A stretch of DNA of 24,000 bases from Actinomarinicola tropica (GTDB lineage Bacteria > Actinomycetota > Acidimicrobiia > Acidimicrobiales > SKKL01). This document shows positions 3,577-21,571 of this stretch, in pieces; within the stretch, counting starts at the first letter, position 1; each line of letters opens with the position of its first letter. The DNA lies in NCBI RefSeq assembly GCF_009650215.1, contig NZ_CP045851.1:759189-783188 (forward strand), read 5' to 3'. Position numbers and translations under genes: made by a program. The notes under the pieces were generated by a model. That model did not search any database. It was not told the origin of the DNA and saw only the letters and a list, made by a program, of their open reading frames with translations.

Positions 3577-6300
3577 TCAGCCGGTGTTGCGCAGGCCGGC
3601 GGCGATGCCGTCGATCGTCAGCAGGAGCGCCCGGTCGGTGACGGGGTCGGTCTCGGTGGTCCGGCGGGTGCGCGACAGCAGCTCGACCTGGAGGGCGTGC
3701 ATCGGGTGCAGGTAGCGGTCGCGCACGTCGAGCGTCCGTTGCAGCACCGGGTGCTCCGACAGCGGACCGCGCCCCTCGGTGACCCACGCGAGCTGCTCGA
3801 CCGTCCTGGCGTGCTCGTCCTCGATCACGTCGAGCAGGTGGCGATGCTCGGTGGGCACCAACGCCTCGACGTAGCGGCGGGCGATGCCGAGGTCGGTCTT
3901 GGCCAGCGTCATCTCGACGTTGCTGAGCAGGGCCCGTAGGAACCACCAGTCCCGTGCCATCTGCCGCAGCCGGTCGCCGTGGCCCGCGTCGCGCGCTGCG
4001 GCCAGCCCGGTCCCGACGCCGAACCAGCCGGGCACGATCTGGCGGCTCTGGGTCCAGCCGAACACCCACGGGATGGCGCGCAGCGCGTCGAGCCCGGCGT
4101 TCGCCTCGGGCCGTGACGCCGGCCGGGAGCCGATGTTCAGCCGCCCCAGCTCCTGCACCGGTGTGGACGTGAGGAAGTAGTCGACGAGCGACGGGTCGTC
4201 GACCAGGCGCCGGTAGGCGGCGCGCGCCGCGTCGGAGGTGACGTCCATGACCTCGTCGTAGCCGGCGAGGGTGCTCTCCTCCTGGCGCGAGGTGGTGTGG
4301 AGCACGGTGGCCTCGAGCGTCGCGGCGACGAGCAGCTCGGCGTTGTGCCGGGCGAGGTGCGGCAGCAGGTACTTGTCGCTGATGACCTCGCCCTGCTCGG
4401 TGAGCTTCACCGCCCCCTCGACCGCCCCGTAGGGCTGGGCGAGGATCGCCTGGTGGGCGGGACCGCCGCCGCGGCCCACCGAACCGCCGCGGCCGTGGAA
4501 GAGGCGGAGCCGCACGCCGTGCTCCTGCGCCACGTCGCGCAGCATCCGGATCGCCCGCTGGATCGACCACTGCGAGGTGACGATGCCGCCGTCCTTGTTG
4601 GAGTCCGAGTAGCCGAGCATGACCTCCTGGACGTCGCCGCGGGCCCGCACGACCTCCCGGTAGCTCGGGGTCGACAGGAGGTCGCCGACGATGCGGTCGG
4701 CGTCGAGGAGCTCGTCGATCGTCTCGAGCAGCGGCACGAACGACAGACGGGCGACGCCGCGAGGGACGTCGACCAGTCCGGACTCGCGCGCCGCGACGAC
4801 CGCGGCGAGGACGTCGCTCGGCCCCCGGGTCATCGACACGATGAACGTGCGGATGACGTCGTCGCCGTAGCGGTCGAGGGCGTCGCGGATCACGCTGAAG
4901 GTGCGGGCGACCCTGGTGGCGGTCGGGGAGACCTCGGTCGTGAGGCTGCTGAGCGGGCGGGCCCCGGCGAGCTCGCCGTCGAGCAGGTCGCTGCGGCCCT
5001 CGTCGTCGCTCGGGTAGTCGATGCCGTTGAGCTGGCACAGCTCCTCCACCAGCGTGTGGAGGTTGCGGCTGTGGTCGCGCACGTCCATCTCCGCCAGGTG
5101 GAACCCCGACGCCGCGACGACCCGTCGGACGCCGTCGAGCCGGCCGACCGCGAGGTGGCCAGCTCGCTCGCGCAGCGAGCGACGGACGAGGTCGAGCTCG
5201 GCGAGTAGCTCGGTGGCGTCGCGGTAGTCGACCCCCGGCCGGTGCGGCGTGCCCGTCCGGTGTCGCTCCCTGGTGTTGAGCACGCGCTCGCGGCAGTAGG
5301 ACAGCTTGAGCCGGTAGGGCTCCTCGGCGTTGAGGTGGGCGAGCCGCTCCCAGACCTCGGGCAGCGCGGCCCGGTCGGCCTCCAGGCTGGCGACCAGCTC
5401 CGGGTCGTCCCCGACGATGAGCGACGACGGCGACAGCTCGGTGATGAGGTCGGCGAGGGCCCGCTCGATGAGGAGCAGCCCGCGGTCGTGCATCCACGCG
5501 AGGACCGCGGAGGTGACCTCCGGCGTCACGTTGGGGTTGCCGTCGCGGTCGCCGCCCACCCACGTGCCGAACCGCAGCGGCTGCGCGTCGAGGGGCAGCT
5601 CGACCCCGGCCCGGGCGAGGTGCGCCTCGAGGTCGACGAGCAGGTCGGGGAGCACGTTCCAGAGGACGGACTCCGCGTAGTACAGGGCCGACTGGGCCTC
5701 GTCGGTCGGACGGGGCGCGTTGACCCGCAGCTCGTCGGTGACCCACAGCAGGTCGATGAGCTCGGCGGCGCGCCGGTCGAGCCGCTCGTGCTCGTCGTCG
5801 CCGAGCCGCGGGTCGTGGCGGCGGTCGAGCAGCTCGGCGAGGTCGGCGAGCTTGGTGAGCACCGAGCGGCGCGACGACTCGGTGGGATGGGCGGTGAGCA
5901 CCGGTCGGACCTCGAGGCTCGCCACCGCGTCGGCCAGCTCGTCGGCGGGGAGGCCGGCGTCGGCGATGCGCTCGAACGTGGCGCGCATCCAGCCCCGCCC
6001 GCCGTCCTCGGGCCGGTTGGTGAGGCTGACGCGGTGCGCCTGCTCGGCGACGGTCGCCAGGTGGAAGTACGTGGTGAACGCCCGGGCGTAGAGGATCGCG
6101 TCGAGCGCCCCTGCGGCGGCCAGGCGGTCGGCCAGCTCGCGGCCCGCGGCGGCGTCGCCCTCGTCGGCTCGCCGGGAGAGCTGGCGGATCTCCTCCACGG
6201 CATCGAGGAGGTCCTGTCCGCCCTGGCGGACGAGCGCCCGCCCGAGCTCGTCGCCCAGGCGGCGGATGTCGGATCGGAGCGCGGCGTCGACGTCGTCCAT
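3577..6300 (-). CDS. ppc: phosphoenolpyruvate carboxylase
   Basis: 907-aa product starting at ATG 6300..6298 (MDDVDAALRSDIRRLGDELG). Hallmark motifs: VLTAHPTE, MLGYSDSNKDGG, FHGRGGSVGRGGGP, and the invariant C-terminus GLRNTG. The remainder of listed ORF 3577..7491 is an out-of-frame shadow over the upstream gene. Confidence 0.95.
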   Translation of the reverse strand: MDDVDAALRSDIRRLGDELGRALVRQGGQDLLDAVEEIRQLSRRADEGDAAAGRELADRLAAAGALDAILYARAFTTYFHLATVAEQAHRVSLTNRPEDGGRGWMRATFERIADAGLPADELADAVASLEVRPVLTAHPTESSRRSVLTKLADLAELLDRRHDPRLGDDEHERLDRRAAELIDLLWVTDELRVNAPRPTDEAQSALYYAESVLWNVLPDLLVDLEAHLARAGVELPLDAQPLRFGTWVGGDRDGNPNVTPEVTSAVLAWMHDRGLLLIERALADLITELSPSSLIVGDDPELVASLEADRAALPEVWERLAHLNAEEPYRLKLSYCRERVLNTRERHRTGTPHRPGVDYRDATELLAELDLVRRSLRERAGHLAVGRLDGVRRVVAASGFHLAEMDVRDHSRNLHTLVEELCQLNGIDYPSDDEGRSDLLDGELAGARPLSSLTTEVSPTATRVARTFSVIRDALDRYGDDVIRTFIVSMTRGPSDVLAAVVAARESGLVDVPRGVARLSFVPLLETIDELLDADRIVGDLLSTPSYREVVRARGDVQEVMLGYSDSNKDGGIVTSQWSIQRAIRMLRDVAQEHGVRLRLFHGRGGSVGRGGGPAHQAILAQPYGAVEGAVKLTEQGEVISDKYLLPHLARHNAELLVAATLEATVLHTTSRQEESTLAGYDEVMDVTSDAARAAYRRLVDDPSLVDYFLTSTPVQELGRLNIGSRPASRPEANAGLDALRAIPWVFGWTQSRQIVPGWFGVGTGLAAARDAGHGDRLRQMARDWWFLRALLSNVEMTLAKTDLGIARRYVEALVPTEHRHLLDVIEDEHARTVEQLAWVTEGRGPLSEHPVLQRTLDVRDRYLHPMHALQVELLSRTRRTTETDPVTDRALLLTIDGIAAGLRNTG

Positions 6301-7061
6301 CACACCAGTGTGTTCGCGAACACCTGCCATGCGAGGAGGCTCTTGGCCACGAGGCTGAGGACGATGTAGATCCGCTCGCCGCGGAGGTAGTCCGTCCAGC
6401 CGCCCCGCGCCCGGTACTGCAGCAGCTGCACCAGGGCGAAGCAGTTGAAGGCGACGAAGATCGTCACGAAGATCCCGTACACGAAGTTCGGCACCTCGTC
6501 GCCGGCGCCGAACAGGTAGATCGAGATGCCGATCCACGGGACGGCGCCGATGATCGAGCCGAACACGAACGGGCTCCAGTCGACTCGCTCGTCGGCCCGG
6601 TTCTTGGTCTCCATCTCCCAGCCGAAGAAGATCATCGCGGCGTTGGCGCCGAAGAGGCCGAGGAGCGCGACGGCGTCGGTGATGCCGGTGATGCCGGCGA
6701 TGAGCACGATCATCAGCGACGCCGACAGCGAGTACTCGACCCAGCGGAAGCGGTTGCGACCCTCGGACAGCTCGTGCTGGTAGCGGGACCATCCCGACGG
6801 GGACACGACGAGGAAGTGGAAGAACGCCGAGAGCAGGGAGAACGCCGCCACGGCCGGACCGAGCGGATAGCTGAACAGCTCCTCCAGCTGGTCGCCCGAC
6901 ACCGGGGTGCCCGGCGGGCCCGACGCGAACAGCGCGGTGACCGGGAGGGAGAAGTCGTTCGACAGGACGATGATGAGCGTGCCCTGGACCAGGTGGGCCA
7001 GGCCCGCCACCAGGTTGAAGGGGCGGAGGCGCGACAGGGCGCGGGCGTCGATCTCGGTCAT
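6300..7061 (-). CDS. heliorhodopsin (7-TM retinal-binding protein, inverted topology family)
   Basis: 253 aa with seven hydrophobic helices. From memory it aligns end to end with heliorhodopsin 48C12. Matching elements: FN..G.AHLVQG (His23), a long TM1-TM2 loop, SAFFHFLV (His82), RFRWVEYSLSAS (Glu109 at the counterion position), PNFVY, and TM7 LSLVAKSLLAWQVF with Lys240 (codon 6342..6344). An SD-like GAAGGGG lies 5 nt upstream of ATG 7061. Confidence 0.9.
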   Translation of the reverse strand: MTEIDARALSRLRPFNLVAGLAHLVQGTLIIVLSNDFSLPVTALFASGPPGTPVSGDQLEELFSYPLGPAVAAFSLLSAFFHFLVVSPSGWSRYQHELSEGRNRFRWVEYSLSASLMIVLIAGITGITDAVALLGLFGANAAMIFFGWEMETKNRADERVDWSPFVFGSIIGAVPWIGISIYLFGAGDEVPNFVYGIFVTIFVAFNCFALVQLLQYRARGGWTDYLRGERIYIVLSLVAKSLLAWQVFANTLV

Positions 7062-7144
7062 GTGGGCCCCTTCGTGGCGGGTCGTGCTGACGGATGCAGC
7101 GGTGGCGCCCTACCAGTCGCCGGCCGGCGGAAAACGGTGCGCGG

Positions 7145-8098
7145 TCAGCCGAGGAAGCGGCGGACGTCGTCGGCGTCGGCCCCGAGCGCGACCAGGGCGT
7201 CCGGTGCGATCGGTTCGAGGGGATCGATGTCGACGGCGCCGCGCTCCCACCGCCAGGTGGCGACGGCCCGGCCGTCGACGAGCGCGATGGCCCGGAAGAG
7301 CCCGTTCGTGGTGACGACGCCGCGGTGCGGTCCGGTGATGCGCGGGCGGTCCGTCCAGCCGTGCAGGAGGGGGTCGAACGGGCCGAGGAGACGCGGTGGC
7401 GGCGGGCGCGCGTCGCGGTGGTCGCGCCGGACGACGAGGTTGTCGTCGCCCCACGGCTCGGTCTCCTCGGCGATGGCGGCCAGACCGGCACGGGCGTCGC
7501 CGAGGGTGAGCCCGCTCCACGCGGCCAGGTCGCGCGCCGAGGCCGGCCCGTGGCCTCGCAGGTAGCGCCGGGCCAGCTCGGCGAGCGCGGCGTCGTGGTC
7601 GACGGGTGGCATCGGCCCGAGCCAGGACTCGACGTCGACGAAGGCGTGGCGACCGTCGACGACCGGGCCGCGGACGAGCGCGTGGCGCAGCGTCGCGGCC
7701 ATGAGGATGTGGACGATCGCCTGGCCGGCCGTGCGGATGCCGGCGGCGTCGACCCGGTCGCGCAGCTGCTCCCGGGTGAGCGGGCCCTCGGCCCGCACCG
7801 ACGACATCACCACCTCCACGGCCCGGTCGGCGTCGGCGGGCGGGACGCCCTCCTCGCCCAGCCGACGGGCGTTGTGGACGAGCTGGCGGGGGGCGGTGAG
7901 CGCGTGCAGCCAGTGGTGGTCGGCGGCGGGGACGAGGTGGAGCGTGCCCCGGTGGAGCCAGCTGACGACGAGGGCGCGGTCGACGGTGACCGGGCGGCGG
8001 TGACGGGGTCCATGGGCCGAGTGTGGCTGCTCCTGCGGACAGGATCCGACCGCGTTCGCGGCGAGCTTGCGACCTTCGGCCCTACCTCGTGGGTGCAC
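7145..8098 (-). CDS. winged-helix DNA-binding protein, AlkZ/YcaQ-like DNA glycosylase family (short N-terminus)
   Basis: 317-aa ORF with a GTG start at 8098. Family-typical blocks: LHRGTLHLVPAADHHWL, ELARRYLRGHGPASARDLAAWSGL, FDPLLHGWTDR, ALVDGRAVATWRW. A possible Q-x-Q catalytic motif (PQEQPHSA) lies near the N-terminus. The N-terminus looks about 15-20 aa shorter than I expect for the family. Confidence 0.7.
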   Translation of the reverse strand: MHPRGRAEGRKLAANAVGSCPQEQPHSAHGPRHRRPVTVDRALVVSWLHRGTLHLVPAADHHWLHALTAPRQLVHNARRLGEEGVPPADADRAVEVVMSSVRAEGPLTREQLRDRVDAAGIRTAGQAIVHILMAATLRHALVRGPVVDGRHAFVDVESWLGPMPPVDHDAALAELARRYLRGHGPASARDLAAWSGLTLGDARAGLAAIAEETEPWGDDNLVVRRDHRDARPPPPRLLGPFDPLLHGWTDRPRITGPHRGVVTTNGLFRAIALVDGRAVATWRWERGAVDIDPLEPIAPDALVALGADADDVRRFLG

Positions 8099-8118
8099 CG
8101 GCAGCGGATCCTCGGGGC

Positions 8119-9666
8119 ATGGGAGCCGAGGAGCACCGCCAGCGCGTCCGGTCGATCATCGAGGACCCGGCGCTGACCTACCGCCAACGGGTGTACGCCC
8201 TGGCCGGCGCGGCCGAGGACGCGCTCGACCCGCCGGCGGTGAGCGCCGCCTGTGCGCTCGCCCTCGACAAGGGCCTGATCTGCGACCTGGCCGAGGGGCA
8301 CGCGCCGTATCGTCCCCGCTACACGCTGCCCGACTACGCCCGGGCCCTGGCCCGGGGCAGCACGTTCCTCGAGCTGCCCCCGCCGACGACGTTCGACGAG
8401 GCGACCACGTTCCTGCTCGCGGCGTACGCCAACGTCCCGTCGATCACCGGCTACCCGGTCTGGTTCGGCGACCTCGACCGGCTGCTCGAGCCCTTCGCCG
8501 CCGATCTCGACGACGACGAGCTGCGCACACGCCTGCGTCGGTTCTGGGTCCTGCTCGACCGGCTGTTCCCCGACGCCTTCGCCCACGCCAACCTCGGGCC
8601 GGCCGACGGGCGCGTGGTCCGGGCCGCGCTCGGCGTCCACCGCGACGTCCACCAGGTGGTCCCGAACCTGACACTGCGGGTCGACCCCGACGTCACGCCC
8701 GACGACCTGCTGCTCGAGGCGGCCCGCACGATCGTCACCGTCGCCCAGCCCCACCTGGTGAACCACCCGATGATGGTCGCCGACCTCGGCGAGCGGTACG
8801 GCGTGGTGTCCTGCTACAACGCGCTGCCGGTCGGCGGGGGCTCCCACACGCTCGTGCGGCTCAACCTGCTGGAGGCGGCTCGCCGCCACTCGGGCTCGGC
8901 GGAGCGGTTCCTCGACACGACCCTCCCCGGCGCGATCGCCCTGACGGCGGAGCTGATGGAGGCCCGCATCCGGCACGTCGTCGAGCAGGCCCGCTTCTTC
9001 GAGTCCTCGTGGCTCGTCGACGAAGGGCTGCTCTCGCTCGACCGCTTCACCGCGATGTTCGGCATCGTCGGGTTGGCCGAGTGCGTGGAGCACCTGCTGC
9101 TGCTCGACGGCCGCGAGGGCCGCTACGGCCGCGACCGTGCCGCCGACGACCTGGCCCACGACATCGTCGAGCGCGCCGCGGCGATCGTCCACGCCCTCCC
9201 CATGCCCCATTGCGAGGCGACCGGCGGACACGCCCTCCTGCACTCGCAGGCCGGGCTCGACTCCGACGCGGGGTTCACCGCAGGGACCCGGGTCCGCGTC
9301 GGGGACGAGCCGGACCTCTACCGCCACCTCGCCGCGGTGGCGCCGAACCACGCGCACCTCCCGTCGGGCGTGAGCGACATCGTGCGCCTCGACGAGACCG
9401 TGGTCGACAACCCGGAGGCCGTCGTCGACGTGGCGCGGGGCGCGCTCGCGCTCGGGATGCGGGACGTCACGTTCGAGGTGGCGAACGGCGAGTTCGTCCG
9501 GGTGACCGGCTACCTGGTGAGGCGCAGCGAGATCGAGAAGGTGGCGGCGGCGGACGCCGTGCGGCACTCGAGCAGCGTCCTCGGCGCCGGATCGTTCGCC
9601 AACGCCGGGCTGGATCGCCGCACCGCTCAGCGGGTGCGGTCGCACGAGCGGACGGTCGGGACGTGA
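8119..9666 (+). CDS. yjjI: YjjI-family (DUF3029) glycyl-radical enzyme
   Basis: 515 aa from ATG 8119; as I recall, E. coli YjjI is of similar size. Blocks shared with E. coli YjjI as I remember it: ICD..EGHAPY.PRY.LPDYA, PDAF.HANLGP.D.RV, NLT...DP..TPDDLLL, GVVSCYN.LP.GGG..TLVRLNL. The glycyl-radical motif VRVTGYLVR has its Gly codon at 9508..9510. Confidence 0.85.
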   Translation: MGAEEHRQRVRSIIEDPALTYRQRVYALAGAAEDALDPPAVSAACALALDKGLICDLAEGHAPYRPRYTLPDYARALARGSTFLELPPPTTFDEATTFLLAAYANVPSITGYPVWFGDLDRLLEPFAADLDDDELRTRLRRFWVLLDRLFPDAFAHANLGPADGRVVRAALGVHRDVHQVVPNLTLRVDPDVTPDDLLLEAARTIVTVAQPHLVNHPMMVADLGERYGVVSCYNALPVGGGSHTLVRLNLLEAARRHSGSAERFLDTTLPGAIALTAELMEARIRHVVEQARFFESSWLVDEGLLSLDRFTAMFGIVGLAECVEHLLLLDGREGRYGRDRAADDLAHDIVERAAAIVHALPMPHCEATGGHALLHSQAGLDSDAGFTAGTRVRVGDEPDLYRHLAAVAPNHAHLPSGVSDIVRLDETVVDNPEAVVDVARGALALGMRDVTFEVANGEFVRVTGYLVRRSEIEKVAAADAVRHSSSVLGAGSFANAGLDRRTAQRVRSHERTVGT

Positions 9667-17183: not shown

Positions 17184-18308
17184 TCAGCTCGGCGGTGACG
17201 GCACGACGGCGAGCATGCCCTCGACGATGAGGCGCCGGGCGAGGGTCACGCGGCTCTGTTCGTCGATCCCGGGGAGGTCACCGACGCGGACAGGTCCGCC
17301 GGTCGCCAGCTTCTCCACCGCGACCCGACCGACGGCGGGCAGCTGGAGGGTGCGGTCGTCGAGGACCAGCCGGATCCGGTGGGCGTCGTCGCCGTCGGCC
17401 ACACGGGCGACGGTGCCGGGACGCAGCTGGACGACGTCGTCGAGGGTGAGGGCGGCGCCGTGCACGAGCGCGGCGAGGCGGCCGCGGTGGTCGGGCCGGG
17501 CCCGTCGGCGGGAGCGCTCGTGGGCCGCGACGTCGGCGGGATCGGTCGCGTCGAGGTGCGCAGCGACCGTCCGCAACACCGGCGCCAGTCCGTCAGCGAG
17601 GTCGTCGCCGCCCTCGGCCCACCCGAGGGGCAACGGGTCGTCGAGCGCCTCGACGGTGTCGAGCACCCGTCGCAGCACGTCGCGGTAGGTGATGCGGAGG
17701 ATGCCGATGGTGAGGTGCAACGACGTCGCGTCGTTGGCGCGGGCACTGTGCTCGGTGCCTGTCGGCATGTAGAGCGCGTCGCCCGGCGTGAGCTCGAGCT
17801 CGCCGAGCCCTGCGACGTGCCAGTGCTTGGTGCCGTGGAGCTGCCGGACGATCACGTCGTGGCGGTCGGCGTGGGGGCGCAGCCCTGCGGCGCCGGGAGG
17901 GGTCAGGTAGGCGTTGACCTGGACGGGGTGGGAGATGGCGCGCTCGAGCAGGGCGGCGAGGTGCCCGACCGCGGGGTGGGTGCGGTGGAGGGACTGGAGG
18001 ACGATCGTGTCGCCGCCGGCGAAGCGCTCCGCGAGCTTGGCGGGATCGACGACGCCCTCGGTGGGCCGACCGCCGAGACGGACGGGCGTGCAGTAGTCGC
18101 TCTCGGGCAGCGTGCGGCCGTCACGCACGACGCGGATCTCCGGGCGTCGAGCGGCGCTGATGAGCACGGCGTCGACATCGTCGACCGACAGGACGTCGGC
18201 GAGGACGTCGTCGGTGCGGAGGACGAGGGGGCGACGCCCCCAGTGCTGCGCGGCGAACGCTGCCGTGTCGCCGACGCAGCGCTGGAGGACGTCGTGGTGG
18301 TGGGTCAA
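17184..18308 (-). CDS. JmjC / cupin-4 family 2-oxoglutarate/Fe(II) oxygenase (ribosomal-oxygenase-like)
   Basis: The HxD...H triad context reads RPHADRHDVIVRQLHGTKHWHV ... LTPGDALYMPTGTEHSA ... SLHLTIG. The C-terminus is winged-helix-like. The start is uncertain. I chose TTG 18308 because the upstream S/T/P/R-rich part of listed ORF 17184..18485 has poorer GC3 and overlaps a better-coding small ORF in another frame. Confidence 0.7.
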   Translation of the reverse strand: MTHHHDVLQRCVGDTAAFAAQHWGRRPLVLRTDDVLADVLSVDDVDAVLISAARRPEIRVVRDGRTLPESDYCTPVRLGGRPTEGVVDPAKLAERFAGGDTIVLQSLHRTHPAVGHLAALLERAISHPVQVNAYLTPPGAAGLRPHADRHDVIVRQLHGTKHWHVAGLGELELTPGDALYMPTGTEHSARANDATSLHLTIGILRITYRDVLRRVLDTVEALDDPLPLGWAEGGDDLADGLAPVLRTVAAHLDATDPADVAAHERSRRRARPDHRGRLAALVHGAALTLDDVVQLRPGTVARVADGDDAHRIRLVLDDRTLQLPAVGRVAVEKLATGGPVRVGDLPGIDEQSRVTLARRLIVEGMLAVVPSPPS

Positions 18309-18318
18309 CGGTCGGGGG

Positions 18319-18489
18319 TCAGGCCTCGTCGCCGGTGTCGAGCGGACCCTCCCCTCCGCCGTCGAGGTTCTCGTCGGCTTCGGTCGGCTCGTCGCCGGTG
18401 TCCTTGCCGCTCTGGCCGCCCGTGTCGAGGTTCTCGTCGTCCTCGGTGGGCTTGTCGCGGGTGATGTCGTCGTCGTTGATGTCACTCAT
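18319..18489 (-). CDS. small hyper-acidic repeat protein (56 aa)
   Basis: Sequence: MSDINDDDITRDKPTEDDENLDTGGQSGKDTGDEPTEADENLDGGGEGPLDTGDEA. GC3 is about 52 of 56 codons by hand count, clearly better than the overlapping frame. It is the C-terminal part of listed ORF 18319..18936. Confidence 0.6.
   Translation of the reverse strand: MSDINDDDITRDKPTEDDENLDTGGQSGKDTGDEPTEADENLDGGGEGPLDTGDEA
18325..18450 (-). repeat. in-frame 2 x 63-bp tandem repeat encoding PTE(D/A)DENLD......DTGDE
   Basis: Unit 1 is 18388..18450 and unit 2 is 18325..18387. By hand alignment, 46 of 63 nt and 15 of 21 aa are identical. The unit ends are nearly perfect and the centres diverge. Confidence 0.7.
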
Positions 18490-18538: not shown

Positions 18539-18814
18539 TCAGTCGCCGCGTCGGGGCTCGAACAGCTCGATCGGGTTGCCCGACGGGTCGTCGGCGACGA
18601 CCTGCCGGCCACCGTTGCCCTGGATGATCTCGCTGCGGAGCGCGATGTCGTGGCGGCGCAGCGCGTCGACGGTGGCGTCGAGGTCGTCGACCTCGATCTG
18701 GATGCGGTTCCAGCCCCCGGGTACGGGCATCGTGCCGTCGCGCATGGGTTGGCCGGCGCCGCCGCCTCCTCCCGGTGTGTTGAGCAGCAGCCGCAGGTCG
18801 TCGCGCCGGAGCAT
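18539..18814 (-). CDS. VOC (glyoxalase/bleomycin-resistance fold) family protein; N-terminal module apparently missing
   Basis: The 91-aa ORF contains FAMLRRDDLRLLLN...PVPGGWNRIQIEVDDLDATV..L......RSEIIQGNGGRQVVADDPSGNPIELFEP. Family members I recall are about 125-135 aa, beginning with a beta-alpha unit (..V.D...S..FY...LGF..) that is absent here. Confidence 0.55.
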   Translation of the reverse strand: MLRRDDLRLLLNTPGGGGGAGQPMRDGTMPVPGGWNRIQIEVDDLDATVDALRRHDIALRSEIIQGNGGRQVVADDPSGNPIELFEPRRGD

Positions 18815-19007
18815 GGCGAACCCCGGACCGGGGTGGGCGCCTCGTTCGGGCGCGCTCGGTCCGCTCGACCTGTTCTCCGAACGTGCGGCGACGGATGTCG
18901 CGCGGGAGCTCGGCCTGATCGTCGACTAGCGCGCATCTGGCTCGGCGCGTATCTGGGCGGCCTCCGCGACGTCCTGTTCTGCGCGGGTCGACGCCGGGAG
19001 GTGCGCC

Positions 19008-20117
19008 ATGCCGGACGAGAACGTGATCATCGCCGTACCCACCGAGGTGGGACCGGAGGAGCGGGCCGCGGTGGGCTTCGACGACGGGAGCCGGGCCCGG
19101 ATCGACCTGACCGACGAACGGGCTGCCGGGCTCGCCGAGATCCTCGCCGGGCTGCGCGACCTCCGCCGGCCCGCCTACGTCGAGCTCGACGCGGCGACGG
19201 GCGCGGTGGTCGAGCTGCGCATCCCGCACGTGTCGCGGGTGGCGCGGGTCATGACGCTCGACGAGGACGTGGTCGCCGTGCAGCTCGAGCTGTCGCACGC
19301 CCGCCACCTGCTGCGTGCCGACACCGACGGGTACGAGGGGATGCGAGACCTGCTCCGTCGATCGGTCGAGGACGGGACGGTGCTCGTCGTCACCGAGGAC
19401 GACCGGCACCACATCATCGACGTTCGCCCGTCGAGGTGGGAGATCGAGTGGCCGCCGCCGGTGCGCCAGCAGCTGCCCCGGTGGTTGCGGTGGGTGCCTG
19501 AACCGCTCGTCCCCGTCGTGCGGCGGGTGTTCCACCTCTCGGAGGACGCCCTGTCGTGGCTGCTGTGGTGGCTGTTCCCGGTGTCGGGAGCGAAGGCCCG
19601 TCAGGTGTTCGACGCGCTGAACACGTTGAGCTGCCACCCGGTGAACGTGCCGGTGCCGTGCATCCCCTTCCTCTACCCGGACGACGGCTGCTGGGGCCGA
19701 GCGCACGAGATGACCCGGCTGATGAAGGGCATGAGCGTGCGCCCCCGGAAGGTGTGGATCGAGGGGTGGTTGGGTCCGGCGACCCGGAACAACCCGAGCT
19801 GCGAGGTGTTCTGGGGTTGGCACGTGGCGCCCACGCTGCGTGTGCGGCGGTGGCTCTGGATCTTCATGGCTCGCACCGAGGTGATCGATCCGGCCCTCTT
19901 CGGCGGCCCGGTCGCGCAGAGCACCTGGAAGAGCGTGCAGAACGACCCGAACGCCACGCTGACCCCGTCGAGCGCGTCGATCTTCTACCTCTGGGGGTCG
20001 GTCACGGACCCTGACAACTCCCAGACCGAGGGTGTGCTGGCCACCTACCGGCTGCACCTGCGGAACCGTTCGCTCTCGCCGTCGGGTCCGCCGCCCTACG
20101 CCCACTGCCCGGTGTGA
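19008..20117 (+). CDS. protein-glutamine glutaminase (protein deamidase) domain protein with a novel N-terminal domain
   Basis: GGGAGG lies 6 nt before ATG 19008. The C-terminal roughly 150 aa match the Chryseobacterium protein-glutaminase core as I remember it. Pairs are given as here / Chryseobacterium: CIPFLYPDDGCWGRAHEM / CITFRYPVDGCYARAHKM; VFWGWHVAP / VAWSYHVA; VIDPALFGGPV...W / IIDPSLFSSGPVTDTAW. Triad codons: Cys228 at 19689..19691, His272 at 19821..19823, Asp294 at 19887..19889. There is no N-terminal signal peptide. Confidence 0.75.
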   Translation: MPDENVIIAVPTEVGPEERAAVGFDDGSRARIDLTDERAAGLAEILAGLRDLRRPAYVELDAATGAVVELRIPHVSRVARVMTLDEDVVAVQLELSHARHLLRADTDGYEGMRDLLRRSVEDGTVLVVTEDDRHHIIDVRPSRWEIEWPPPVRQQLPRWLRWVPEPLVPVVRRVFHLSEDALSWLLWWLFPVSGAKARQVFDALNTLSCHPVNVPVPCIPFLYPDDGCWGRAHEMTRLMKGMSVRPRKVWIEGWLGPATRNNPSCEVFWGWHVAPTLRVRRWLWIFMARTEVIDPALFGGPVAQSTWKSVQNDPNATLTPSSASIFYLWGSVTDPDNSQTEGVLATYRLHLRNRSLSPSGPPPYAHCPV

Positions 20118-20168
20118 GGTCCGCGTTGCCTCGACAGCTCGGACCCTTGTCGAGGCAACGCGGACCTC
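20116..20168. terminator. 20-bp perfect-stem hairpin between convergent genes (probable bidirectional intrinsic terminator, no U-tract)
   Basis: GAGGTCCGCGTTGCCTCGAC (20116..20135) pairs with GTCGAGGCAACGCGGACCTC (20149..20168) around a 13-nt loop. The left arm overlaps the TGA of the upstream gene. Confidence 0.7.
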
Positions 20169-20207
20169 GGAGCGGCTCGAGCTGCCGGTCGGCCGGCCGG
20201 GGTCCGC

Positions 20208-21146
20208 TCATGACACGAGCGCGGCGGTGATCGACTCGGCGTTCGTGCGCATCATCCCGAGGTAGGAGTCCGCCGATGAGCCGGGCGGACCGAGCGACTC
20301 GGTGTGCAGGCTCACCACGTCGATGTCGAGACCCGACTCGACGGCCAGGACCTCCGCGAGCCGGGTCGGCTGCGACGTCTCGGCGAAGATCGCCCGGACG
20401 TCGGAGGTCCGCAGGACGGTGGTGAGGTCGGCGAGGTCCCTCGCGCTGGGGCTCGCCAGGGTGCTGCCGGACGGGATGACGGCGCCGAGGACCTCGAACC
20501 CGTAGCGATCGGCGAAGTACCCGAACACGTGGTGGTTGGTGACGAGCCGCCGTCGCTCCGGCGGGATCGTCCCCACCATGTCCTCGATCTCGCTGTCGAG
20601 CGCCTCCAGCCGTCGGCGGTAGTCCTCCTGTCGGCCACGCACGTCGTCGGCTGCCGCATCGGTGACCAGCTCCGCCAGGTGATCGCCGATGAGGTCGGAC
20701 GCGGTGGCCATACGGCGCGGATCGGTCCACACGTGTGGGTCGAGGTCGGGCCCGCGGGCGGCCACGGTGCCGGCGTAGCCGAGTGGGTCCAGCGCCGGTC
20801 CCACCTCGAGCACCGGGACACCCTCGCGGCGGGCCGCGGCGAGCACGTCGACGAGGCCCTCCTCGAGCCCGAGCCCGTTGGCGATCACGAGGTCCGCGTC
20901 GAGCAGCCGCTCGGCCTCCGCTGCCGACAGCGCGAGGCCGTGGGGGTCGGCACCGGGGGGCATGAGGTCGATCACCTCGATCGCGTCACCGCCGATCGCC
21001 GCGGTGACGTCGGCGAGGATGTTGGTGGTCACCGCCACCGTGGGCACCCGCCCCTCCTCGTGCGCGGAGGAGGAACGGGTGCACGCCGTGGCGACGAGGA
21101 GGACGGCGCTGACCGTCAGGGCCAGCGCCGCTCGGCGTCCGAGCAC
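20208..21146 (-). CDS. metal ABC-transporter substrate-binding lipoprotein (cluster A-I; ZnuA/TroA/AztC-like)
   Basis: 312 aa from GTG 21146. The signal/lipobox reads VLGRRAALALTVSAVLLVATAC. Metal-ligand blocks: GADPHG, DPHVWTDP, NHHVFGYFADRYG (His at the third ligand position, which suggests Zn/TroA-type rather than Mn-type), IFAETS. Only the last third of listed ORF 20208..23147 is real. Confidence 0.85.
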   Translation of the reverse strand: MLGRRAALALTVSAVLLVATACTRSSSAHEEGRVPTVAVTTNILADVTAAIGGDAIEVIDLMPPGADPHGLALSAAEAERLLDADLVIANGLGLEEGLVDVLAAARREGVPVLEVGPALDPLGYAGTVAARGPDLDPHVWTDPRRMATASDLIGDHLAELVTDAAADDVRGRQEDYRRRLEALDSEIEDMVGTIPPERRRLVTNHHVFGYFADRYGFEVLGAVIPSGSTLASPSARDLADLTTVLRTSDVRAIFAETSQPTRLAEVLAVESGLDIDVVSLHTESLGPPGSSADSYLGMMRTNAESITAALVS

Positions 21147-21151
21147 GTGGT

Positions 21152-21571
21152 TCAGTCGTGGGTCGTCGGCGCGAGCCCGACGACCGCGACGCCGGCCGGG
21201 TTGCCACCCACCGCGATCTCCCGCGCGACGCGCAGCTCGTCGGCGATGCCGAGCTCGACGACGCGGCCGCCGTCGGGATCGGTGACGTAGGCGCGATCGC
21301 CGGCGACGAGGACGGTCGGGACGGGCGGACCGCCGTGGCCGTCGGGAAGCTCGATGGTGTCGAGGACGGGGGTGGACTGGAGCACCTCGCCCGTGGCGGG
21401 GTCGATCCGGTGGACCTGGCCGTCGTCGGTGAGGGCGACGATCACCTCGTGCTCCTCGTCGAAGGCCATGGCGACCAGGGCGGCGGGGAGCGGGATCATG
21501 GCCGAGGTGCCGGCCTCGATGTCGATGCGGACGACGGCCTCGTCGGCGAGGGTGCCGATGGCGCCGTCCCT
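21152..21571 (-). pseudogene. beta-propeller repeat protein, C-terminal fragment (YVTN/AztD-like), 5' portion missing
   Basis: The protein-like sequence RDGAIGTLADEAVVRIDIEAG...LVAGDRAYVTDPDGGRVVELGIADELRVAREIAVGGNPAGVAVVG shows typical propeller-blade repeats. Upstream in frame it degenerates to Arg-rich shadow. The first in-frame ATG is at 21499. Its stop lies 5 nt before the SBP start. Confidence 0.45.

Follow-up and report, generated by a model that had tools for sequence, protein, structure and literature searches.

The gene at positions 19008 to 20117 of the 24,000-nucleotide stretch of Actinomarinicola tropica DNA analysed here (contig NZ_CP045851.1, positions 759,189 to 783,188; the whole stretch is called the window) encodes a 369-residue protein whose C-terminal 173 residues are a protein-glutaminase (PG) core with the catalytic triad Cys228-His272-Asp294. 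Its N-terminal domain, called the N-domain in the following, is homologous to the pro-region of the secreted enzyme, structurally and weakly by sequence, and consists of an internal tandem duplication. As it carries this duplicated pro-like domain and no signal, the protein amounts to a pro-PG that lacks the "pre". On a narrow balance, we take it to be a latent, zymogen-like protein-glutamine deamidase that is intracellular, or at least not exported by Sec or Tat.

The only Pfam family matched by the protein is PF18626 (Gln_deamidase_2), at residues 198-309 and with 88.8 bits against a cutoff of 25, and the only PDB sequences found with it are protein-glutaminases (8z3i at 2.5e-16, and 2ksv, 2zk9 and 3a54 at ca 1e-13). 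Alignment of the core with pro-PG by hhalign gives a probability of 99% and an E-value of 5.7e-18. With the full-length AlphaFold2 (AF2) model, Foldseek yields 3a56_B at 2.3e-16 and 2zk9 at 8.9e-11, and all matches at E≤0.001 are PG chains exclusively. These results confirm the C-terminal PG core that an earlier note, made from the sequence alone, had proposed.

The same note had called the catalytic triad intact, and this was found to be the case. In the alignment with the PDB sequences, C228, H272 and D294 are paired with Cys42, His83 and Asp103 of the mature enzyme, which constitute the published triad of the structure 2zk9 (PMC3498931), and all three are among the 55 invariant columns of an alignment of 51 homologues, to which the conservation values given below also refer. 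The motifs that contain them (DGCWGRAH at residue 226, WHVAP at 271 and VIDPA at 292) correspond to the flanking motifs common to PG and the family, namely YP-x-DGC-W/Y-x-RAH, W-x-W/Y-HVAP and IDPSLF. The NCBIfam model NF040782, which describes the Chryseobacterium-type PG equivalog, is matched over positions 150-271 of its 321 with 60.5 bits, below the cutoff of 250. Four non-catalytic cysteines, 209, 218, 265 and 367 (nt 19632-19634, 19659-19661, 19800-19802 and 20106-20108), are also invariant in the family, and the first three align with cysteines of secreted PG. A fifth family-conserved cysteine, at position 236, is a threonine in the window copy.

The earlier note had described the rest of the protein as an unrecognised N-terminal domain of about 200 residues, in contrast to the secreted prepro-enzyme. 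It is correct that Pfam gives no match to the N-terminal 194 residues, even at E≤10, but the folded part comprises 142 residues, followed by a linker of ca 53 residues, and the contrast does not hold, since both Foldseek and hhalign tie the domain to the PG pro-region. The guess that it could play the role of the propeptide is thereby supported.

The structural evidence comes from an AF2 model of the stand-alone N-domain family (predicted local distance difference test, pLDDT, 89), which contains no glutaminase core. Its top PDB matches are 3a56_A, 3a54_A and 3a56_B, with a Foldseek probability of 1.00 and a root-mean-square deviation of 1.7-1.8 Å over 75 columns. Other fold matches are generic barrels of the oligonucleotide/oligosaccharide-binding (OB) type, such as AB5 B subunits, eIF5A and HIN (E 0.03-0.3), and a Foldseek search against viral structures gave generic OB-fold matches only.

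For the sequence comparison, a profile built from 137 N-domains, both fused and stand-alone, was aligned by hhalign with the pro-region (residues 1-114) of a pro-PG sequence identical to residues 1-299 of 3a56_A. Residues 19-99 of pro-PG pair with residues 47-145 of the window protein, with 88-109 as an insertion (P 0.011), and the score of 21.4 compares with 11.5±1.8 (maximum 15.6) for shuffled profiles, none of 60 shuffles reaching it. In this alignment, which is of low confidence at the level of single residues, Ala47 of pro-PG, placed by means of the A47Q chain 3a54, stands opposite S76 in the segment I-P73-H-V-S/T-R77-V, where P73 is invariant and R77 is at least 90% conserved. The relationship is detectable by structure and hhalign only. 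Namely, the sequence profile of the stand-alone N-domain gave only chance matches in the PDB (L24 and adenylate kinase), and the pro-region of Chryseobacterium proteolyticum PG, used as the query of a homology search, gave no matches. An unfiltered phmmer search with residues 1-194 against 1.84 billion representatives returned 286 clusters, and the ten longer matches that were checked all carry PF18626, save one apparently truncated protein.

The N-domain is a tandem duplication of a strand-strand-helix-hairpin unit of ca 53 residues. When the two units (residues 20-72 and 89-141) are aligned with each other by hhalign, the E-value is 6.4e-4 and the score is 20.0, as compared to 9.8±2.0 for column-shuffled controls. 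In the second unit, S96 and H100 are invariant, while H97, R99, T129, E130, D132, H134, D138 and R140 are at least 90% conserved, and the motifs that they form recur in the stand-alone N-domain family.

The linker is rich in Pro, Trp, Arg and Leu throughout the family (20, 15, 10 and 10%, respectively). AF2 predicts a Pro-rich, less confident part at residues 143-160 and a long helix at residues 165-189 with a pLDDT of 90-95. Since the linker is missing both from the split form of the system described below and from the fused relative P0253, it is specific to a clade. The Trp-rich hydrophobic stretch of the earlier note is present, at residues 182-194, but it is a part of this clade-specific linker and probably not a classical transmembrane helix. 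P0253 itself (373 aa) has a short acidic linker without Trp.

The AF2 model of the full-length protein, for which the family alignment served as input, has a pLDDT of 89.2 and a predicted template modelling score (pTM) of 0.86, and consists of a beta-rich domain (residues 1-142), the linker with its helix, and the core. Its superposition on whole pro-PG chains covers 307-324 columns with a TM-score on the target (TMt) of 0.64-0.65, and that on the mature enzyme 2zk9 covers 200 columns with a TMt of 0.68. By a rough estimate, superposing only the core on the 281-residue pro-PG chain could give a TMt of at most ~0.5, and a part of the pro-like domain should therefore superpose in the same frame. 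The model suggests that the N-domain packs on the core roughly as in pro-PG, over the cleft. The I-P-H-V-S/T-R-V segment would then be located at the place of the Ala47 loop of pro-PG, which, in line with the titles of the PDB entries, sits on the catalytic Cys, with the pro-region covering the active site.

Family, export signals and the split form

The fusion is not peculiar to the window but is the standard architecture of a large, already-named and uncharacterised family. A homology search over 5.8 billion proteins gave at least 1,355 matches among the 8,000 candidates that were scored, with the architecture shared at ca 370 residues, and the best 120 matches all have 348-447 residues, 90-100% query coverage and 43-70% identity. 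Where NCBI gives a name, it is "protein-glutamine glutaminase family protein". The label "UPF0216", attached by JGI to some homologues, was considered and rejected, as it has no support from Pfam. In a scan with one genome per species, 166 species genomes were found to carry the architecture, with 166 confirmed loci in at least 10 phyla. These loci include Gemmatimonadota, Chloroflexota, Bacteroidota, Planctomycetota, Actinomycetota, Acidobacteriota and Verrucomicrobiota as well as Alpha-, Beta- and Gammaproteobacteria (among them Ensifer/Sinorhizobium and Sphingomonas), and one intact copy lies on a Sinorhizobium megaplasmid. The window copy retains 109 of the 114 positions that are at least 90% conserved in the family, and judged by this conservation it looks functional. 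We found no literature on the signal-less fused clade, and an exact-sequence look-up of the 369-residue protein returned no record. One relative, P0168 (596 aa), continues beyond the N-domain and the PG core into C-terminal DUF5648 repeats.

The N-terminus of the window protein is acidic and without an h-region, its longest hydrophobic run being VIIAV, and no signal peptide was found there by composition and hydropathy, nor any export signal in the protein or its 51 aligned homologues by alignment and hydropathy, no dedicated predictor having been run in either case. The earliest possible start codon after the in-frame stop (18927-18929) is that at 19008, and the first residues, MPDENV..., match the family's conserved MPNPNA start. 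The statement of the earlier note that there is no signal peptide is thus upheld.

A minority of the relatives of the N-domain (P0235, P0149, P0248, P0122, P0140 and P0171) have N-terminal extensions that resemble a lipoprotein signal, a signal peptide or a transmembrane segment, for example MKSNVAVFMMAAWIGIGFISC. Several of them keep an internal MPNPNA, and some of the extended starts are therefore perhaps mis-called. If the lipoprotein- or signal-like extensions are real, some clades export the system.

It is important to note that the N-domain and the core are also encoded by separate genes. Many of the N-domain matches are complete proteins of 155-170 residues that end just past the IIDVR motif, and on at least 5 independent contigs such a gene is followed, after a gap of 7-160 bp, by a gene for PF18626. 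The order in this cassette is an N-domain gene (162-169 aa), a PF18626 gene, a gene for an 84-residue protein and a gene for a protein of ~96-114 residues. The PF18626 protein has 220-273 residues, with an extra C-terminal domain of ~85 residues, of which the 84-residue protein is a paralogue (MWTGVQW..WFTWGWP..WDVAVERAN..CTYWITVKNLT..FEGRYAVLS). The last protein starts with MRIVIDIDG and has a basic tail. Pfam gave nothing for the two small proteins or the N-domain, PADLOC had no match for the small proteins, and neither of these partners was found in the window or next to any of the other 79 loci of the fused type. The coexistence of split and fused forms provides evidence, of the Rosetta-stone kind, for a joint action of the N-domain and the core, and the separate coding in some genomes argues for a lasting regulatory or chaperone partner and not a throw-away leader. 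The only archaeal-labelled locus, L075 (JAENYU010000027.1, labelled as a metagenome-assembled genome of a Methanobacteriota archaeon), is of the split type and has both small partners; this may be due to horizontal transfer or to an error in binning.

The neighbourhood of the fused genes was also considered. An all-versus-all blastp comparison of the flanking open reading frames (ORFs) at 80 loci revealed no conserved neighbour, only Ensifer/Sinorhizobium synteny, and among the 140 ORFs nearest to fused genes, Pfam found each family in at most 3. Among these neighbours there is no immunity, secretion, chemotaxis, trafficking or defence partner, and the reading of the earlier note in terms of a regulator or toxin finds no backing there. 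In PADLOC-DB v2, 0 families matched the window protein, and the split-form proteins gave one non-significant match (E 0.049). Membership in the secreted or injected deamidase toxins and polymorphic toxin systems (CNF1, PMT, Cif, and effectors of type VI secretion systems or extracellular contractile injection systems, eCIS) found no support from sequence matches, PF18626 being the sole Pfam family, and the paper on eCIS toxins mentions PG only generically.

Proposed latency and alternative explanations

By analogy with pro-PG, the N-domain would keep the enzyme inactive or weakly active until it is displaced. Displacement could result from a cut within the exposed, Pro-rich stretch at residues 143-160 of the linker or, alternatively, from a ligand or a membrane acting on the Trp/Arg-rich helix, and the active core would then convert Gln side chains of proteins to Glu. 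Both the latency and the cytoplasmic location are what we infer, and a latent, self-inhibited enzyme is the most economical solution because a loose, non-specific protein deamidase in the cytoplasm would be harmful. In the known enzymes, the Chryseobacterium pro-PG is inactive until the propeptide is removed by extracellular proteases, the Bacteroides pro-PG is ~17-fold less active than the mature enzyme, and the cleaved propeptide remains bound until 4 M urea (PMC13139226).

A number of points speak against this picture. The occlusion of the active site is read indirectly, from the AF2 model and the fold-match scores, and the residue-level alignment with the pro-region is of low confidence, with an hhalign probability below 5%. 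Furthermore, the pro-PG of Bacteroides helcogenes is active without being cleaved (PMC13139226), so that an enzyme with a pro-like domain is not necessarily silent. The conservation of the N-domain is well above that of a typical propeptide, and its invariant polar motifs (S96, H100, E130, H134, D138) suggest that it has a function of its own. The invariant non-catalytic cysteines, three of them common to secreted PGs, would suit an oxidising compartment, and a few relatives appear to bear lipoprotein or signal sequences.

The strong conservation, the invariant polar residues and the autonomy of the N-domain in the split form could also reflect a constitutively active cytoplasmic deamidase, in which this domain is a module for substrate recognition or folding (an intramolecular chaperone) and not an inhibitor. 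The OB-like barrels and the S-H-x-R-H and T-E-D-D-x-H motifs would then serve to bind a specific partner (protein, nucleic acid or metal) and to guide the core to a single target Gln, in the way that CheD and Cif act on defined substrates. The matches to AB5 B subunits, eIF5A and HIN and the activity of the B. helcogenes pro-PG with its propeptide attached fit this scenario (PMC13139226). However, those OB matches are generic, the homologous pro-region is inhibitory in both characterised enzymes (PMC13139226), and no conserved neighbour points to a dedicated substrate. We consider a targeting N-domain unlikely. The cysteines shared with secreted PG (Cys209, Cys218 and Cys265) and the lipobox- or signal-like N-termini of some relatives would instead be accommodated by a protein that is membrane-anchored or non-classically exported, with the Trp-rich segment as an internal signal-anchor or interfacial anchor and the core acting externally to the cytoplasm, as classical PG does. 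By the Wimley-White octanol scale the best 19-residue window indeed lies in the linker, with a family median of ~-14 kcal/mol, and is strongly favourable in many homologues. On the Kyte-Doolittle scale, however, the best 19-residue window reaches 0.98 in the window protein, and a value of 1.6 is reached by only 4 of the 51 homologues. Arg, His, Glu and Asp are found inside the segment, which AF2 packs as a helix with a pLDDT >90 in the full-length model. A transmembrane helix would also part two regions whose homologous counterparts in pro-PG touch each other, and the split form and P0253 have neither the segment nor signal peptides. We regard an anchored or exported enzyme as very unlikely.

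The split form, with its order of inhibitor and then enzyme and its short gaps, brings to mind a conflict module, where a PG-core toxin is fused to an N-domain antitoxin or immunity part and a phage or stress cue releases the deamidase to shut down the cell. Some split loci adjoin genes for TIR, STAND-NTPase, PIN or patatin proteins, and the sparse, patchy spread over at least 10 phyla suggests horizontal transfer. The lack of a PADLOC match and of a conserved neighbour, the housekeeping context in the window, and the fact that no defence, mobile or toxin family is enriched among the 140 nearest neighbours (the commonest family reaching 3) make us give such a module very little credence. A broader speculation, which we find quite unlikely, is that the family forms a class of cytoplasmic protein deamidases not recognised before, each of them self-contained and autoinhibited and operating as a toxin and antitoxin in one chain. 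The duplicated pro-like N-domain would here restrain a promiscuous glutaminase until a specific cue arrives. This cue might be a protease, a protein linked to phage or stress, or damage to the membrane, which the Trp/Arg-rich linker would sense; the released core would mass-deamidate cellular proteins, and the four-gene split cassette would be a multi-subunit version of the switch. Finally, the Cys-His-Asp fold might perform a different chemistry, such as transglutaminase cross-linking or the reaction of a peptidase or a small-molecule amidase. Papain-like and transglutaminase-like folds do switch among such activities (PMC10318531; PMC3498931), and the NCBIfam equivalog score is far under its cutoff, but the motifs flanking the triad are common to PG, and PG chains are the sole significant structural matches, which renders this option extremely improbable.

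The gene and its surroundings

The features of the gene and its flanks are collected in Table 1, together with the positions of the split cassettes. The GC contents at the three codon positions of the gene are 0.69, 0.52 and 0.93, in a window with 73.4% GC, and the value at the third position (GC3), being like that of the native genes in the window, is typical of a real gene. The flanking arrangement suggested in the earlier note was largely reproduced. The gene has its own GGGAGG Shine-Dalgarno sequence, and it is monocistronic, as its neighbours on both sides lie on the opposite strand, a remnant of the glyoxalase/vicinal oxygen chelate (VOC) type upstream and a ZnuA-type gene downstream. 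The upstream gene is indeed decayed: it has a partial Pfam match, its first start codon leaves 91 residues, and the in-frame codons further upstream contain no start codon and are not VOC-like. The hairpin downstream is also present, with a stem measured as 23 bp where 20 bp had been given before, and it is probably a bidirectional terminator without a U-tract. A scan for consensus promoters and terminators in this 73% GC DNA gave nothing, and nothing was expected there; for the hairpin, the terminator scan is blank because of the missing T-run.

Table 1. Positions of the gene, its domains and its flanking features in the window, and of split cassettes at other loci
Feature	Position	Strand	Basis
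Coding sequence, 369 aa + stop, signal-less pro-protein-glutaminase-like protein	19008..20117	+	ORF call; GC3 0.93
Shine-Dalgarno GGGAGG	18996..19001	+	read from sequence; 6 nt 5' of ATG
N-domain, aa 1-142, beta-rich with two helices, PG pro-region homologue	19008..19433	+	AF2 pLDDT mostly >90; Foldseek; hhalign
Repeat unit 1 of N-domain, aa 20-72: strand, strand, helix, hairpin	19065..19223	+	hhalign vs unit 2
Conserved I-P73-H-V-S76-R77-V segment	19221..19241	+	hhalign to pro-PG L45-T46-A47-Q48-F49, low-confidence per residue
Repeat unit 2 of N-domain, aa 89-141, with S96-H-A-R-H100 and T129-E-D-D-x-H-x-I-I-D-V-R140 motifs	19272..19430	+	hhalign; alignment
Pro/Trp/Arg/Leu-rich linker, aa 143-196	19434..19595	+	family composition; AF2
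Trp-rich helix LSWLLWWLFPVSG, aa 182-194	19551-19589	+	within linker
PG catalytic core, papain-like, aa 197-369	19596..20114	+	PF18626, hhalign, Foldseek
Catalytic Cys228 codon TGC	19689..19691	+	aligns to Cys42 of 2ksv/2zk9; family-invariant
His272 codon CAC	19821..19823	+	aligns to His83; family-invariant
Asp294 codon GAT	19887..19889	+	aligns to Asp103; family-invariant
Hairpin, 23-bp stem, begins within stop codon, between convergent genes	20115..20169	.	dG -46.8 kcal/mol, z -7.6
Glyoxalase/VOC remnant, 5'-truncated, divergent upstream neighbour	18539..18925	-	Pfam Glyoxalase profile positions 38-121 only
ZnuA-type metal-binding lipoprotein gene, convergent downstream neighbour	20208..21200	-	PF01297, 3.2e-68
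Four-gene split cassette	L082:5001-6882; L084:4001-5942; L085:4001-5989; L087:4001-5928; L075:~6000-7800; also a JGI contig		
Split cassette with frameshifted PG gene	L081:5001-6922		

The window otherwise contains housekeeping and accessory genes, a few of which are worth recording. A full-length heliorhodopsin gene at 6300-7061 on the minus strand (PF18761, 5.2e-95) adjoins a gene for phosphoenolpyruvate carboxylase at 3577-~6280 (-). A YjjI-like glycyl-radical enzyme is encoded at 8023-9666 (+; PF11230, 6e-187), with a gene for an AlkZ-like DNA glycosylase upstream of it at 7145-8098 (-). The frame with the best GC3 changes at ~18319-18489 (-), and here a short and highly acidic frame, MSDINDDDITRDKPTEDDENLDTGGQSGKDTGDEPTEADENLDGGGEGPLDTGDEA, overlaps the low-complexity 5' end of the JmjC/cupin ORF at 17184-18485; the switch and the overlap indicate that the true JmjC start may lie further downstream.

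Significance and comparison with known systems

PG is valued in food processing and is, to our knowledge, known only as a secreted enzyme of Bacteroidota. The present family is a large, scattered clade that retains and duplicates the pro-domain and has lost the export signal. Its existence suggests that, in soil bacteria, the deamidation of Gln in proteins is a regulated activity inside the cell. As the window gene is one ordinary member, what is of interest here is the family rather than this locus. Enzymologists would gain new PG scaffolds from the family, as well as a natural system of two subunits, pro-domain and core, in which to study inhibition and folding; to microbiologists, it offers a candidate latent protein-modifying enzyme.

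The closest comparison is the prepro-PG of C. proteolyticum (3A56/3A54 for the pro-form, 2ZK9/2KSV for the mature form; EC 3.5.1.44), with which the window protein shares the papain-like core, the triad and the active-site motifs at a core identity of about 28%. In both proteins a homologous domain precedes the core, and the overall arrangement is predicted to be similar. The C. proteolyticum enzyme has, however, an N-terminal Sec signal peptide of 21 residues (PMC6132073), whereas the window protein has none. The pro-like domain is duplicated and has 142 residues in the window protein, as compared to 114 residues in C. proteolyticum, and the conserved S-H-x-R-H and T-E-D-D-x-H motifs and the 53-residue Pro/Trp/Arg linker are extra. 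The hosts also differ, the window coming from a high-GC, actinobacterium-like genome and C. proteolyticum being a member of Bacteroidota.

The Flavobacterium sp. enzyme FBPG (PDB 8Z3I) is the best sequence match in the PDB, and its whole chain is matched by Foldseek at an E-value of 3.7e-15. In FBPG and in the B. helcogenes enzyme PGB, the propeptide modulates the activity rather than blocking it fully (PMC13139226). Unlike the window protein, both are secreted, with a signal peptide and a single pro-region, and are activated by extracellular proteases.

Outside the PG family, the C3 domain of Pasteurella PMT, Salmonella SseI and CheD likewise employ a Cys-His-Asp triad, placed on a related fold, and have intracellular proteins as their targets (PMC3498931). 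The window protein, in contrast, has no Pfam or NCBIfam match to those families, lacks a domain for translocation or secretion, and is not flanked by genes for chemotaxis or secretion systems. A functional analogy, with no claim of homology, can be drawn to the intracellular subtilisin proteases, which are signal-less relatives of secreted hydrolases that are restrained by an N-terminal pro-sequence (PMC6220982), although their fold and chemistry are unrelated, being those of a serine protease, and their pro-peptide is short.

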